From a phage: a stretch of DNA of 64,000 nucleotides. The stretch lies in the sequence record PZ386974.1; one strand, 5' to 3'. Under the pieces are notes generated by a model. It saw only the letters and a program-made list of their open reading frames with translations, did not search any database and was not told the origin of the DNA. Made by a program: the position numbers and the translations under genes. Numbering within the stretch: the first letter of the stretch is position 1; each line of letters opens with the position of its first letter. This document shows, one piece after another, positions 3,542 through 44,535 of this stretch.

Positions 3542-4112
3542 AAAAGTTTCGGATTTGTTCCCAATTCAGAGAACGAAGATTATTACGAGAGTACTGAATT
3601 ACTTCAATACCGGCTTGTTTTAGAATTTCGGCCCAATTTTCAGGAGATCTGTCATATAATTCCGCGTATACAACCTTTTTAATACCTGACTGCGTAATAG
3701 CTTTAGTGCAATCAGGACACGGAGAAAGCGTAGTATATAACGTAGCACCTTCAATAGAATTACCTTTACGAGCTGCAAACAAAATTGCGTTCAGTTCCGC
3801 ATGGATTTCGTTATTAGCAGACCATGCACTATGAGCGGCCCGATGTTCTTTAGCCAAAACAAAATTATCCACCCGTCCAAATGCTGTAGTGCCTTCTTTA
3901 TGCCCAGCAACGATGACCGGGCTTGGTTTATTCTTCAACCAACCGTTTTCGGATGCATGTTCGCAACAGTTTGTACCACCTGAAGGAGAGCCATTATAAC
4001 CTGTAGAAATAATGCGTCCATCCTTTTCAATGACGGCACCAACTTTCCATGAACAACATTTTGATTCTTGAGAAATCAGATATGCAATCTGAAGGTATGT
4101 GCTAGCTTTCAT
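3531..4112 (-). CDS. cd: dCMP deaminase
   Basis: 193 aa; zinc-binding HAE and PCxxC motifs (HAELNAI...SPCPDC); size matches T4 Cd; ATG overlaps upstream stop (TAATG). Confidence 0.9.
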   Translation of the reverse strand: MKASTYLQIAYLISQESKCCSWKVGAVIEKDGRIISTGYNGSPSGGTNCCEHASENGWLKNKPSPVIVAGHKEGTTAFGRVDNFVLAKEHRAAHSAWSANNEIHAELNAILFAARKGNSIEGATLYTTLSPCPDCTKAITQSGIKKVVYAELYDRSPENWAEILKQAGIEVIQYSRNNLRSLNWEQIRNFCGE

Positions 4113-5104
4113 TATTGAACCTTATTAATATAAGTTAACAGCTCTTTAGTTTGTTCCCAACTGATGCACGCATCGGTAACGGAAACGCCATAGGACATAT
4201 TATCAGAAATTTTTTGATTTCCTTCATGTAGGAATGATTCTATCATAATTCCTTTGACCAAATCATTAGCTGCTAAATTTTTACCAATACCAATTTGATT
4301 GCTATAATGCCCATCAGCGTTTGCATGGCTACAGTCAACCATTACATAATGATTCAGACCTACTGCCCTTGCTTTGTTAGAAGCTTCTTGAATATCAGAA
4401 GAATGATAGTTCGGGCCGTTGGTCCCACCACGCAATACGATATGCGTATTCTGATTACCTTCAGCTTCAACAATGCCTACAGTACCATCGACGTCCATAC
4501 CCATATACCGATGAGGCCAGGCGGCACTATACATCGCGTCTGTAGCTACTTTAATAGAACCATTGGTTGCGTTCTTGAAGCCTACGCACATCGGTAGACC
4601 TGAAGCAATTTCACGATGTGTCTGACTTTCAGTCGTACGGGCGCCAATAGCAACCCATGAGAAAATACCAGAAAGATACTTAATCGTGAATGGGTCTAAT
4701 ACTTCAGTTGCTAATGGAAGTCCCATACGTAGAAGTTTACGACACAATGTTCGTGCAACTATAAGACCGTGGTTCATATCAAAACTTCCGTCAAGATATG
4801 GATCATTTACAAGACCTTTCCAACCTACGGTAGTTCGAGGCTTTTCAAAATAAACGCGCATCACTAACAGAACATTAGGAAGACGAGTTTGAAGTTCGGC
4901 CAGACGTTTGCCGTATTCAACAGCAGCAATAGGGTCATGAATTGAACAAGGACCTACAACAATAAGTTTGCGTGGGTCTTCACCGTTCATAATCGAATTA
5001 ACTTGTTCGCGATGAGAAGCCACTTGTGATGCGTAAGCTTCCGACAAAGGAATAATCTCAGCCAGTTCTTTTGGAGAAATAAGTTTTCCGACGACAGGTA
5101 ACAT
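4112..5104 (-). CDS. 3-deoxy-D-arabino-heptulosonate-7-phosphate (DAHP) synthase, AroG/F/H-like class I
   Basis: 330 aa; motifs VVGPCSIHD, FEKPRTTVGWKGL, IGARTTESQ, VMVDCSHAN collinear with E. coli AroG; ATG start. Confidence 0.85.
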   Translation of the reverse strand: MLPVVGKLISPKELAEIIPLSEAYASQVASHREQVNSIMNGEDPRKLIVVGPCSIHDPIAAVEYGKRLAELQTRLPNVLLVMRVYFEKPRTTVGWKGLVNDPYLDGSFDMNHGLIVARTLCRKLLRMGLPLATEVLDPFTIKYLSGIFSWVAIGARTTESQTHREIASGLPMCVGFKNATNGSIKVATDAMYSAAWPHRYMGMDVDGTVGIVEAEGNQNTHIVLRGGTNGPNYHSSDIQEASNKARAVGLNHYVMVDCSHANADGHYSNQIGIGKNLAANDLVKGIMIESFLHEGNQKISDNMSYGVSVTDACISWEQTKELLTYINKVQ

Positions 5105-5225
5105 AACAATCCTTAGGAGATATAAACAGATTCTGATTCAACAATACCTTTAACCGGACCACGCCAGGCTAAGTTGGTAGTGCTCAGATTTATGACCATT
5201 CTCGATAGTAATGAGATAGCTCTCA

Positions 5226-5462
5226 TTATAGTGTTCCATATACTCGAGTTGCTTCAACAAGACCATCACTGCCTAATTTAAGGCTAGTAATCTGGCCACC
5301 ATCTTTAGGATTAACGATTATGAGAAAAGAACGTGGAGATTCTTGAATAACTCGTAATGTTGCATCCTGGAAACGTTCAGACACTTTATTGATGAGTGCT
5401 TGAGCAAATTCTTTTACTTTAATCTGAAATTCGTGCACTGTAATTGGGTTTTCACTTAGCAT
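5226..5462 (-). CDS. hypothetical protein (78 aa)
   Basis: ORF track. Confidence 0.45.
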   Translation of the reverse strand: MLSENPITVHEFQIKVKEFAQALINKVSERFQDATLRVIQESPRSFLIIVNPKDGGQITSLKLGSDGLVEATRVYGTL

Positions 5463-38569: not shown

Positions 38570-40783
38570 TTATTTGGCCGCTTCCACGGCCTTCATGAAT
38601 TTAACGATTTGAGCGACCTGTTCTTTAGAAAGAGTACCACGTCGTCCCATGTATTCTGACACAATATGATAATTGGTTTCAAATTCAATAACCATTTTAT
38701 CATCATTATCGTAAGCATTATCTTTAAGCTTATCGAAAATTTTAGCACACAATTCTAACTTCTTATTCAGATCTCTGTTAGTAGCACCTGAGAATCGATT
38801 CCATCCCCAACGATTATTTACTGTTGAAAGTTTTGCAAAATCTTTACTGATTTCTTTGTTCTTAGAGCTAAAATACTTACTAAGGAAGTTGAGCTCTTCA
38901 TTACGAGTAATATGATTCAAATAAGGCTGTGCTCTACGACTTGGTGATACATACTCATCATAATCTACTTTATCGATTAGCATAATATAGTCATTAATTG
39001 ATTTTTCAAACAAACATTCTACTTCACCAAGTTTACGAACTTTCTTAGCAATCTGTGGACGGACTACAGTGAACTCTTTAATACCTGACAAATCAGCAAT
39101 ACGGGTCAAGAAATTGGAGTCATAGTTCAACCAACCTTTATCTGCGTCAAGACATTCAGCATTAGAACGATTACGAACTATAGCATAACCTTGGATTTCA
39201 TCAGCTTCACTCGCCGGAATAAAGAGATCTTCTGATACCCAAACATCGTTTTCATTCTTAAAGAACCGATGAGCACTCGGGGATTTAGGACGAGGCCCAT
39301 TAGAACGAGTCTTGACTTCAATCCATGGCTTAACGATTTGTAAAAGCTCTGAAGTCTTGTACATGTTAATGTTGTCGCCATCAAAGATAACTTTAAGGCG
39401 TTCCAGAAGTTTCATTGCGTCTTCGTCTGTAGGGTCAACGAATAGTACGCTTTTACCAAAACCACGTGGGACTTTACCGGTTAATTTAACCTCGTCTTTA
39501 GACATTTCAATTGAATTAAGAGCTCGCATTAATGGAACACGTCCCTTAACGTCATCAATAACAATTTCAACGTTTTTAATGTTAATGCCAATCAGACTGT
39601 TAATTGAAATAGTTGCAGATGAGCTACCACTTTCACGAATACGACGAAGACGAGGGTCTTCAATGATATCGTATACGACGCCGAGATTACACCATTCGGG
39701 TCCCATTTTAAAACGTTTGTACAACTCAGAATAAGTTAGTTGTTCTTTAGAATATTTCAGAGATTCAATATTAGACCCAGCCTTTTCCATGTATTTGCGA
39801 GCGGTATAGCCAAGAGAATCAATTTCACGGAACACATGGCGCGGGTATTTACAATCAATCCATTTCTTAGAATCTTCAGCGAACAATTTAGCATCGATTT
39901 CTGCAACGCGTTTATGGATATTTGCTACTGTACGTTTATCAAATGACAATGCTTCACGAGACGGGGCTACATCTAGTTCACCCATAGGGAATTTAATATA
40001 AGCTGTAGTGCATCGCGTCATCATCCATGTTTGTTCTTTAATAACACTTCCGATTGGATATACAATACCACCATAAACAGCCATGATATTACCACGTTCA
40101 CCCCATGGAGCTTCCTTGGCCAAATATACATCGTCAAATTCAGGGAAGTATTTGATATCTTTAACACCGCGAACTTCTGCAATATCACCTAGAGGACGCA
40201 TAACATATGCAATTTCAGATGCGAACTTTTCAAAATCTTCTGGGTTAACCGGTACAACTACTTCTACACCCGTACGGTCATCAGGGCCCATCTTATCTAC
40301 GAAGGTTGGCTTAATCTGTGGACCACTGTCATCTTGATAAATTACATAACCACGAACTTCACCGTTGTGATAAGATGTAAGGTTAAACGTATCGGTATAT
40401 GCTAGTGGAGCTTTAGAGCCGAGTCCGAATCCACCAATGAAATCGTTACTCGATGTTTTAGTTGAAGCAAAATATGAGTTATAGATTCCTGGCTCTTCGT
40501 CATTACCTCGAATGGTGAAATCACTCATACCAGGACCAAAGTCTCGAACTACAAAACGCGGGTCTAAACGACCTGGAGCCTGAACAATAAACTTATCAGT
40601 GCAACCATTAAGAATTTGTCCATCGATACAGTTTGTGATTAATTCACGTACACAAGCCAATTCTTTGTTTGTATAAAGGTCATTAGACAAAATCTTATAA
40701 ACTTTGCTATTGCCTTGAATAGTAAATGCTGTGCTCTTACCGCCTGAACCAATAATCGTTTCTTTAGCCGTTTCAATAATCAT
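38570..40783 (-). CDS. rIIA: rIIA protein
   Basis: 737 aa; N-terminal GHKL-type ATPase-like region; adjacent to rIIB. Confidence 0.92.
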   Translation of the reverse strand: MIIETAKETIIGSGGKSTAFTIQGNSKVYKILSNDLYTNKELACVRELITNCIDGQILNGCTDKFIVQAPGRLDPRFVVRDFGPGMSDFTIRGNDEEPGIYNSYFASTKTSSNDFIGGFGLGSKAPLAYTDTFNLTSYHNGEVRGYVIYQDDSGPQIKPTFVDKMGPDDRTGVEVVVPVNPEDFEKFASEIAYVMRPLGDIAEVRGVKDIKYFPEFDDVYLAKEAPWGERGNIMAVYGGIVYPIGSVIKEQTWMMTRCTTAYIKFPMGELDVAPSREALSFDKRTVANIHKRVAEIDAKLFAEDSKKWIDCKYPRHVFREIDSLGYTARKYMEKAGSNIESLKYSKEQLTYSELYKRFKMGPEWCNLGVVYDIIEDPRLRRIRESGSSSATISINSLIGINIKNVEIVIDDVKGRVPLMRALNSIEMSKDEVKLTGKVPRGFGKSVLFVDPTDEDAMKLLERLKVIFDGDNINMYKTSELLQIVKPWIEVKTRSNGPRPKSPSAHRFFKNENDVWVSEDLFIPASEADEIQGYAIVRNRSNAECLDADKGWLNYDSNFLTRIADLSGIKEFTVVRPQIAKKVRKLGEVECLFEKSINDYIMLIDKVDYDEYVSPSRRAQPYLNHITRNEELNFLSKYFSSKNKEISKDFAKLSTVNNRWGWNRFSGATNRDLNKKLELCAKIFDKLKDNAYDNDDKMVIEFETNYHIVSEYMGRRGTLSKEQVAQIVKFMKAVEAAK

Positions 40784-40795
40784 ATTTTTCTCTCA

Positions 40796-40996
40796 TCACA
40801 AGTTACGTTTAAAAATTTCTGCTACTTCAAGAAGTTCTTCTTTAGTAGCTGTATCGGTTTGTATTTTATATCGAATTTCTTTAAAGCGTTCTTTAAAGGA
40901 CTCTGCTGACTCGATATCAAAAAATCTTTGGATAAGCCGGAATTCCCGGAGCACTGCTTTATCAAAAAGTTCCAAGTCCACGTTATATGTTCTCAT
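40796..40996 (-). CDS. hypothetical protein (66 aa)
   Basis: ORF track; immediately upstream of rIIA. Confidence 0.5.
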   Translation of the reverse strand: MRTYNVDLELFDKAVLREFRLIQRFFDIESAESFKERFKEIRYKIQTDTATKEELLEVAEIFKRNL

Positions 40997-42215: not shown

Positions 42216-42233
42216 AAGCTCCCGAAGGAGCTT
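42216..42233 (-). terminator. hairpin AAGCUCC-CGAA-GGAGCUU overlapping the gene 39 stop codon
   Basis: 7-bp stem, UUCG loop on transcript, between gene 39 and the glycosyltransferase gene. Confidence 0.45.
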
Positions 42234-44049
42234 AGGACATCCATTCTTTACGAAGTTCTGAATCATCACCCATCAACATTTCAAAGAGTTCTTTCCAATT
42301 TTCAGGAAGTTTAACTACGTCGTACACAGGGTTCTGAATCATTTCACGATATTCTGACTTTTCAAGGGAGCCTAATCCCTTGATGTATCGAATACTATGC
42401 TTAGGCAGTGTATATTTAACTTCTTCATACTCAGCTACAGTATAAAACCATTTTTGAGTTTTGCCAATTTGTGCAATAATTACAGGTGTTTTAACAAAGC
42501 GAATACGTCCTTGTTCAAACAATTCAGGCCAATTACTAAAGAAAGCAAGCAAAGCTGGATAAATGCTTCCAAGACCGTCATGATCGGCATCAGTCATAAT
42601 TGCAATATTACGATAGTTCGTATTCTCTGCCTTTTCACCAAGAATAAGACCTGTGATAGCACAGATATCAAAGAGCTCTTTGTTCTTCATCATATCAGCA
42701 TATGACATACCCCAGCTATTCATCACCTTACCACGTAATGGGAATCCACCATGTAGTTCACGGTCACGAACATCAATGAGATAACCAATTGCCGAATCAC
42801 CTTCTGTTAAGAACAATGTCGTATCTGCATCTTTACCACATTGGTTAGCTTTAATATGCTTATGAACCTTAGCTTTAGTTGCCTTTTTAGCTGCTTTAGT
42901 TTCTGCAGCCTTTTCTGCCGCCAATTTACGAGCTAATGCTGCTTCAACAATAGGCATAATCAAGGCTTCGTTTTTAAGAAGTGCCTGAGCAATTTTCTTA
43001 GCATCTAATTGGATATGATTACGAATATCACCATATGTTGACGTTAAACGTTCTTTAGTCTGAGAATCAAAACGCATGTTGCTCATGTCTCTAATAAACA
43101 TCAACATTGTGAGACATTCTTTAACACGAGCTTTAGTGACTTCAATACCCTTATATTTCTTTTTAATACCGGGCAAAAGATGTTCGCAGATATCATCCAT
43201 TACACATTCAACATGATGACCACCATTTTTAGTATGGATGTTATTCACATAAGTTAAATGACGGAAGCCATCTGGTGATGTTGTGAATGCTATAGAGACT
43301 TTATCATTTTCTTGAATGATGTTATCTTCGCCAAATTGTTTAGCAAATCGTTTAAAATTACCATCAACCTTTTTACCATTAAATGTGAACTTGATATCAG
43401 GATAAACGACTGCCAACGTTTGAAGTCGGTCTAAAGTAATATCTAAATAAACTTGAGATAAATTATGCTCTTCAAATGAAGAGAAATCAGGAGTGAAGAT
43501 TACTTTAGTGCCTTTACCTTTAGATTTCTTAGAAGACCATGATTTGTTTTCCATTCCGTTTGAACAGTTAACAGTGATTTCATTTTCGCCATCTGACGTG
43601 ATGCCTGTAAACAACGTAGAGAAGATATTAGTTAAACTACTCCCGACGCCGTTCATACCACCAGTCTTGCGTTCAGAGTCATCACCAAAGTTACCACCGG
43701 CCTTTGGAATAGTCCAGGCTGCTACAGGCCCAGGAATTTGTTCACCTGTTTGGTCTGTAACTAAACCTTGAGGAATACCACGTCCGTTATCTTCCACCGA
43801 AACTTGATTATTTTTAATTTGCACATCAATTTTATTTGCAAACTTAAATGATGTACGAATAGCTTCATCAACCGAGTTGTCAATAATCTCATCGATTAAT
43901 TTAACCAGACCAGGAACATATTCAACTTGCTGATATTTACCAAACAAAAAACGCTCATGTGCTTCTTTGGCCGAAGAACCAATATACATACCACTGCGTT
44001 TCTTAATATGTTCTACATCTGACAATACCTTAATTTCATTTTTAATCAT
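42232..44049 (-). CDS. 39: DNA topoisomerase II large subunit gp39 (single ORF covering the T4 gene 39 + gene 60 equivalent)
   Basis: 605 aa uninterrupted; GHKL ATPase (Bergerat) motifs in the N-terminal half and a TOPRIM region at the C-terminus; ATG start. Confidence 0.92.
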   Translation of the reverse strand: MIKNEIKVLSDVEHIKKRSGMYIGSSAKEAHERFLFGKYQQVEYVPGLVKLIDEIIDNSVDEAIRTSFKFANKIDVQIKNNQVSVEDNGRGIPQGLVTDQTGEQIPGPVAAWTIPKAGGNFGDDSERKTGGMNGVGSSLTNIFSTLFTGITSDGENEITVNCSNGMENKSWSSKKSKGKGTKVIFTPDFSSFEEHNLSQVYLDITLDRLQTLAVVYPDIKFTFNGKKVDGNFKRFAKQFGEDNIIQENDKVSIAFTTSPDGFRHLTYVNNIHTKNGGHHVECVMDDICEHLLPGIKKKYKGIEVTKARVKECLTMLMFIRDMSNMRFDSQTKERLTSTYGDIRNHIQLDAKKIAQALLKNEALIMPIVEAALARKLAAEKAAETKAAKKATKAKVHKHIKANQCGKDADTTLFLTEGDSAIGYLIDVRDRELHGGFPLRGKVMNSWGMSYADMMKNKELFDICAITGLILGEKAENTNYRNIAIMTDADHDGLGSIYPALLAFFSNWPELFEQGRIRFVKTPVIIAQIGKTQKWFYTVAEYEEVKYTLPKHSIRYIKGLGSLEKSEYREMIQNPVYDVVKLPENWKELFEMLMGDDSELRKEWMS

Positions 44050-44100
44050 GTTGTCTCCTCGTTATGAAGGTATTCTATCATCCGAAATCTAAAGCAAAAA

Positions 44101-44112
44101 GGGCCGAAGCCC
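44101..44112 (-). terminator. hairpin GGGC-CGAA-GCCC flanked by A5/T-rich runs
   Basis: Between ORF 44113..44535 stop and gene 39 start. Confidence 0.45.
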
Positions 44113-44535
44113 TTATTTAAATTTAATTTTCTGAAGTGCATCAATTGCAGCCAAACGCCCTTGTTCACTTTTAACTGTAATGACCACATCGCCTGATACG
44201 ATCACCGAACCATCAACAAATTCTATAGAGCCTTTTTTGAAATCGACAGCTGTATCTGGTTCCGGAACTTCTTCAAAGAATTTAAATTCTGCACCATAAA
44301 GCAGAATATCACCTTGCATACTAATGATTGTACGTCCAGGTCCATCGGTTTCAGCGGCAATCATTGAAACACCGTAACCAATCATCTCTTCTACAATAAA
44401 ATCTCTTGATAATAAAACTGTATGCAGAGTAGTGTTAAGACGTTTACCAGTTGTATTAAGAATTCTCAAGAAATTATCTTCTTGACCTTTGATAATACGA
44501 TATTTCTTACCAACTTCAAAACCTTTAAAAGCCAT
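44113..44535 (-). CDS. hypothetical protein (140 aa)
   Basis: ORF track; ATG start; occupies the slot upstream of gene 39 where T4 has goF/39.x. Confidence 0.5.
   Translation of the reverse strand: MAFKGFEVGKKYRIIKGQEDNFLRILNTTGKRLNTTLHTVLLSRDFIVEEMIGYGVSMIAAETDGPGRTIISMQGDILLYGAEFKFFEEVPEPDTAVDFKKGSIEFVDGSVIVSGDVVITVKSEQGRLAAIDALQKIKFK

Follow-up and report, generated by a model that had tools for sequence, protein, structure and literature searches.

The DNA examined in this study, a 64,000-nt window of phage record PZ386974.1 to which all coordinates refer, carries an open reading frame that is judged, at a probability of about 0.97, to be an uninterrupted gene 39 coding for the GyrB-like large subunit of a T4-type type IIA DNA topoisomerase in a Mosigvirus phage. 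The first-pass annotation had described a single ORF of 605 aa at 42232-44049, and both coordinates and length are correct, with 0 internal stops in the translation (Table 1). No feature of the sequence speaks against this assignment. The exact protein was absent from a collection of 15 billion proteins searched by exact-sequence look-up because it differs from those of known isolates by a few substitutions; the nearest, from phage ST2, is 99.8% identical, a difference of about 1 residue in 605, and 111 phage records hold a protein at least 99% identical to it.

Table 1. Features of the gene 39 region and of the partner subunit gene in the window.
Feature	Position	Strand	Basis or remark
Gene 52, topoisomerase II medium subunit (GyrA/ParC-like, DNA breakage-reunion), 441 aa	33829..35154	-	NCBIfam GyrA/ParC N-terminal models
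rIIA	38570..40783	-	Synteny with RB69 and T4 annotation; anchor
rIIA.1	40796..40996	-	Pfam T4_RIIA1, E = 2e-30; synteny anchor
RB69 ORF003c/RB69p003 homologue, putative GT-B DNA arabinosyltransferase, 366 aa	41089..42189	-	Synteny with RB69
UUCG-tetraloop hairpin AAGCTCC-TTCG-GGAGCTT, then T-rich tail	42216..42233	-	Overlaps gene 39 stop
Gene 39 ("60plus39"), 605 aa: GHKL ATPase, transducer, TOPRIM, TOPRIM_C	42232..44049	-	Single ORF, ATG start
Empty endonuclease site TGGATG, codons W603-M604	42238..42243	-	blastn breakpoints and junction sequences
Intact codons A474-G492 (AENTNYRNIAIMTDADHDG)	42574..42630	-	Stretch lost in T4 and replaced by the MobA cassette; alignment breakpoints
Shine-Dalgarno GAGGAG, 5 nt ahead of the ATG at 44049	44055..44060	-	Read from sequence
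ORF005c-like gene, 140 aa	44113-44535	-	No Pfam match
goF-position gene, 143 aa	44717-45148	-	No Pfam match

The domains of a type IIA large subunit are found in order along the protein. The GHKL ATPase domain (Pfam HATPase_c, E = 3.5e-11) and the transducer (Pfam DNA_gyraseB, E = 2.8e-14) both score above their cut-offs, the former with its N-box, G1 and G2 motifs (EIIDNSVDE at 54, DNGRGIP at 87 and GGMNGVG at 130) and the latter with the QTK loop (QTKERL at 330). Pfam TOPRIM_C scores 26.3 bits, slightly below its 29-bit cut-off. The TOPRIM domain is continuous, and both parts of its E...DxD metal site, TEGDSA at 415 and DADHDG at 487, are in the same reading frame; the role of this site is taken from the T6 structure paper (PMC11461880). 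The window residues E416/D487/D489 correspond to T6 E415/D486/D488, offset by a 1-aa indel. When the protein was compared with the PDB using phmmer, the best match was T6 gp39 (8ylu_C; query 1-605 against chain 1-604, E = 0) and the second was an engineered T4 gp39-gp60 fusion (8YO3).

Several deposited relatives are auto-annotated as "DNA gyrase subunit B" or "parE", which would fit a reading of the ORF as a cellular gyrB or parE gene, or else as a decayed non-functional copy. However, the NCBIfam gyrB/parE models, though matching end to end, reach only 184-234 bits against cut-offs of 723-900, while the protein matches phage gp39 proteins and the T6 structure best, the gene lies among T-even phage genes and all catalytic motifs are intact. 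Such an origin or state is therefore extremely improbable. Bacterial GyrB/ParE and the N-terminal half of eukaryotic Topo II belong to the same GHKL-transducer-TOPRIM fold family, but relative to these the gene 39 product is distant in sequence, falls below the family cut-offs, lacks the GyrB insert and has a short GyrA-like partner of 441 aa. T-even topoisomerase II relaxes DNA and is not known to supercoil it.

The gene for that partner, gene 52, is located 7 kb from gene 39. Its product matches the NCBIfam GyrA/ParC N-terminal models (E = 1.6e-47, under the cellular equivalog cut-offs) and is annotated as "DNA topoisomerase II medium subunit" in related phage records. Structural and biochemical work on the T4 and T6 enzymes assigned the ATP gate and Mg2+ site to gp39 and the catalytic tyrosine to gp52 (PMC11461880). 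By analogy, two gp39 chains would provide an ATP-operated N-gate (GHKL ATPase and transducer) and the TOPRIM metal site E416...D487xD489, and two gp52 chains carrying the catalytic tyrosine would join them in a heterotetramer. This complex would open a transient break in one duplex, move a second duplex through it and so relax supercoils during phage DNA replication. ATP-dependent relaxation and assembly with gp52 are inferred for the gene 39 product from its 82-86% identity to the characterized T-even enzymes.

The same work showed that the enzyme has two subunits in T2 and T6 and three in T4 with equivalent relaxation activity, and that the natural three-subunit T4 enzyme and an artificial gp39-gp60 fusion do not differ in behavior, which leaves the split without a known functional advantage (PMC11461880). 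In the T4 reference locus, gene 39 lies at 3778..5328 and is followed by the mobA remnant and 60.1, and gene 60 is annotated as two joined pieces around a 50-nt bypass region. The order of the T4 cassette has been given as C-terminal extension, mobA, N-terminal extension, homologous region and 50-nt gap (Manning & Atkins preprint, 10.1101/2022.08.31.505936).

No trace of the cassette was detected in the window. When the protein was aligned with the two T4 subunits by BLASTP, residues 1-474 matched T4 gp39 1-473 (79.3% identity) and residues 473-605 matched T4 gp60 27-159 (86.5% identity). The two alignments abut and are colinear with nothing inserted at the junction, which bears out the earlier proposal that one ORF spans both T4 proteins. 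The topoisomerase ORF is not split near residues 466-473, where a single frame runs without a stop. As had also been proposed, there is no separate gene 60: matches to T4 gp39 and gp60 in tblastn searches of the whole window were confined to the gene 39 ORF. A copy of gene 60 elsewhere in the window was considered and rejected, with T4 gp60 matching only at 42235-42633, inside the ORF.

The absence of a bypass element, another point of the first-pass annotation, likewise held. Where T4 reads GAT GGA, then UAG-CCUUCGGGCUA...50 nt...GGA and UUA GGU, the equivalent of the take-off site in the window is the uninterrupted GAT CAT GAC GGT CTT GGA AGC (D-H-D-G-L-G-S), of which GAC GGT CTT GGA AGC encodes D491-G492-L-G-S. 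A fuzzy search of both strands of the 64-kb window gave 0 matches to the 50-nt gap with up to 12 substitutions, and 0 matches to the take-off hairpin with up to 3 mismatches. No frameshift or stop accompanied by bypass signals was found within the ORF. The codons A474-G492, which are intact here, include the TOPRIM DxDxD metal-binding motif (D487-D491) and end on Gly492 (GGT), the counterpart of the T4 take-off Gly46.

The third part of the earlier description, that mobA is not inserted, was examined by tblastn with intact MobA (272 aa, from phage HY03), T4 gp60.1, the T4 mobA fragment and the T4 gp39 C-terminal and gp60 N-terminal extensions. Only chance-level matches to MobA, gp60.1, the mobA fragment and the cassette-derived extensions were obtained in the 64 kb, all of them at E > 0.4 (best E = 0.47). 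Neither the 43-aa tail of T4 gp39 (FEEKEDGEWF...RKNL) nor the N-terminal ~26-30 residues of gp60 have a counterpart in the gene 39 alignment. This suggests that the gene never acquired the MobA cassette, or at least that it bears no trace of it.

A continuous ORF could also arise from a past MobA invasion if the endonuclease and the bypass gap were later excised, a "hit-and-run" history. Re-fused genes do exist and have been proposed for one clade of Aeromonas phages (Manning & Atkins, 10.1101/2022.08.31.505936), and the gene 39 locus clearly lies open to homing endonucleases, one of which is found in relatives at the gene's 3' end. However, in re-fused genes the C- and N-terminal extension peptides that came with the cassette persist as an insertion (10.1101/2022.08.31.505936). 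The window protein has the same length as T2 gp39 (605 aa), shows no insertion at residues 466-492 when aligned with T4 gp39/gp60 and with T2 and T6, and the T4 extension peptides have no tblastn match in the window. Because no cassette-derived insertion is present, the gene 39 of the window is of the parental type, and a hit-and-run history is effectively refuted and considered very unlikely.

An uninterrupted gene 39 would be translated conventionally from its strong Shine-Dalgarno sequence, without recoding. Its stop codon, TAA at 42234-42232, is overlapped by a UUCG-loop hairpin that may act as a terminator-like or RNA-stabilizing stem-loop. A similar UUCG-tetraloop hairpin at 44099-44114 (minus strand) closes the upstream ORF005c-like gene, and terminator-like sites are enriched across a 4.6-kb stretch (9 observed, 2.2 expected). 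A UUCG loop occurs in the T4 take-off hairpin as well, but these two hairpins are intergenic and unrelated to bypassing. One further hairpin lies inside the ORF at 42666-42649 (codons 462-467; 7 pairs, 3 of them G-C); it was taken as a chance match because it has no accompanying stop or frameshift and falls in ordinary coding region common to T2 and T4.

The unsplit gene is the overwhelming norm, and the T4 split is the exception. A tblastn search with the gene 39 protein matched 1932 phage records, 1818 of which cover at least 80% of it in one place, and a 60-row sample spread over the ranking contained a single record (BF15) with the three-piece, endonuclease-containing arrangement. When the T4 cassette was used as the query, 480 records matched, mostly Tequatrovirus, and only 41 of these span 80% or more of the cassette; in the remainder, T2, RB32 and RB7 among them, the match is limited to the 94 nt of gene 39 at the cassette edge. 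The MobA element of ~1.1 kb has been described as a mobile cassette that was independently inserted in a few clades (Manning & Atkins, bioRxiv 10.1101/2022.08.31.505936). Each invaded clade has close "parental" relatives with an intact gene, and the uninvaded condition is the common state (bioRxiv 10.1101/2022.08.31.505936). The survey counts agree with that picture of rare, independent insertion (10.1101/2022.08.31.505936).

The closest known counterparts are RB69 gp60plus39 (AAP75906.1) and the proteins of the Mosigvirus phages ST2, AV110, ATK48, JS09 and APCEc01, which share the same gene, neighbors and unsplit architecture. The RB69 record names the gene "60plus39: gp60plus39 large subunit topoisomerase II" and adds a note on the T4 split, so the unsplit gene 39 was already known and annotated and is the ordinary state of a well-studied gene. 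The window protein is 96% identical to that of RB69. The deposited RB69 protein is 606 aa long and differs from the window, T4 and T6 at residues ~14-46 in a frameshift-like manner, and this segment breaks the KKRSGMYIG motif that the other three keep. In nucleotides, RB69 (AY303349, 5300-5483) has 23 differences from the window (~43870-44049) in the first 180 nt. This difference is probably due to sequencing errors in the 2003 record and not to biology; other sequencing errors in the RB69 record were reported by a 2026 paper (PMC13326640).

The arrangement had also been likened to that of uninvaded T2-like relatives, and this comparison is sound: T2 gp39 likewise has 605 aa and is 82.3% identical over 605 aa (BLASTP). 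T2 gp39 and T6 gp39 (structures 8YLU, 8YO1, 8YOD and 9IMJ) are single chains, colinear over their full length with the window protein, and they share its domain order and catalytic residues. They differ from it by one 1-aa indel near residue 301 and by genus, both being Tequatrovirus, and in T2, unlike in the window, gene 39 and rIIA.1 are not separated by a glycosyltransferase gene. T4 gp39 and gp60 form a homologous enzyme (79% identity in the gp39 part and 86% in the gp60 part). However, unlike in the window, the T4 gene is cut after residue 473, gp39 has a 43-aa cassette-derived tail, gp60 opens with ~30 unique residues, a decayed mobA/60.1 lies between the halves, and a GGA-UAG...GGA gap of 50 nt follows gp60 Gly46.

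By sequence, the source phage is RB69-like and belongs to the genus Mosigvirus; it is not T2-like. The window DNA is 98-98.6% identical to known Mosigvirus isolates. The 3.6-kb gene 39 locus is 98.0-98.6% identical to numerous Mosigvirus phages of Escherichia and Shigella (AV110, phage 55, ATK48 and JS09) and 97.9% identical to RB69, while the 25-kb stretch surrounding gene 39 is 97-97.7% identical to vB_EQ1 and APCEc01. The gene order rIIA - rIIA.1 - ORF003c homologue - 39 - ORF005c homologue - 39.2 zinc ribbon - goF is that of RB69, and it is this order together with the DNA identity that places the phage as RB69-like. The interval upstream of gene 39 is variable among T-even-type phages, with gene 39.1 in place of the ORF005c type in T4 and both genes in T2. 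The claim that the locus marks the phage as distinct from T4 proper is thus upheld with a refinement: the phage belongs to another genus, Mosigvirus, and having a fused gene does not set it apart.

The gene 39-rIIA.1 interval, which is empty in T2 and holds gene 60 in T4, is occupied here by the ORF003c homologue. This gene is not part of the topoisomerase. Its product has no Pfam or NCBIfam match, and an identical protein is found in phage ATK47. RB69 ORF003c was proposed in 2018 to be an arabinosyl-hmC transferase (PMC6024577) and in 2026 to be "beta-arabinosyltransferase 2" for di-arabinosylated 5-hydroxycytosine DNA (NAR; PMC13326640). A homologue of this putative arabinosyltransferase would imply that the phage DNA contains arabinosylated cytosine.

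The MobA tblastn survey also revealed that the Mosigvirus phages phiC120 and phi25-307 carry a different Mob-type endonuclease adjoining gene 39, and this is the endonuclease found at the 3' end of the gene in relatives. It is a free-standing HNH protein of 265 aa with NUMOD3 motifs and shares 62% identity with MobA residues 1-70 across its HNH region; the start codon of its gene overlaps the stop of gene 39. In the compared loci of both phiC120 and phi25-307 the endonuclease is located at 4001-4798. An insert of 795 nt at the equivalent of ~42238-42243, a few codons ahead of the gene 39 stop, was found in 28 of 188 matching records. In the window this insert is absent at gene 39, and no homologue of the 265-aa endonuclease was found anywhere in the 64 kb. 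In carriers, the original TGGATGTCCTAA-plus-hairpin is kept as the 3' end of the endonuclease gene (the hairpin is kept in phiC120), and within the last ~200 nt of gene 39 they read GNDPELRKDWMLG where the window reads GDDSELRKEWMS.

About half of the differences that separate gene 39 of the carriers from that of the window are concentrated in its last ~200 nt (34/66 for phiC120 and 32/55 for phi25-307). RB69, which lacks the insert, has no such 3' cluster of differences. The cluster looks like a co-conversion or immunity tract, and such a tract-like pattern points to the 3' end of gene 39 as a possible target of the phiC120-type endonuclease. No published characterization of its target was found; the phiC120 genome paper lists the ORF without target analysis. 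Taken a step further, the gene 39 of the window could be a doubly naive allele, with an uncut MobA target in TOPRIM and an empty 3' site whose last ~200 nt are unconverted, and the 39-rIIA.1 junction could be a recurrent landing pad. This proposal is tentative, with the odds somewhat against it.

The data presented in this study indicate for this phage a topoisomerase II of the standard two-gene kind (39 and 52) found in most T4-like phages, for which translational bypass is not needed. As a marker, the fused gene 39 says only that the phage is not among the few invaded T4-like phages. The gene also assigns the window to the RB69-like genus. For annotation, "DNA topoisomerase II large subunit" is preferable to the gyrB/parE names used in several related records. 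The T4 39/60 split and its 50-nt hop are the derived product of a mobile element, as is already in the literature, and uninvaded alleles such as this one are the reference state for mapping the MobA cassette. If the second endonuclease cuts in the last 200 nt, the 39-rIIA.1 junction of T-even-type phages would have served independently as a landing site for two or more homing endonucleases and for a DNA-arabinosyltransferase gene. If the doubly naive proposal is true, the window allele would offer a natural substrate on which to test homing into a phage whose DNA is arabinosylated.
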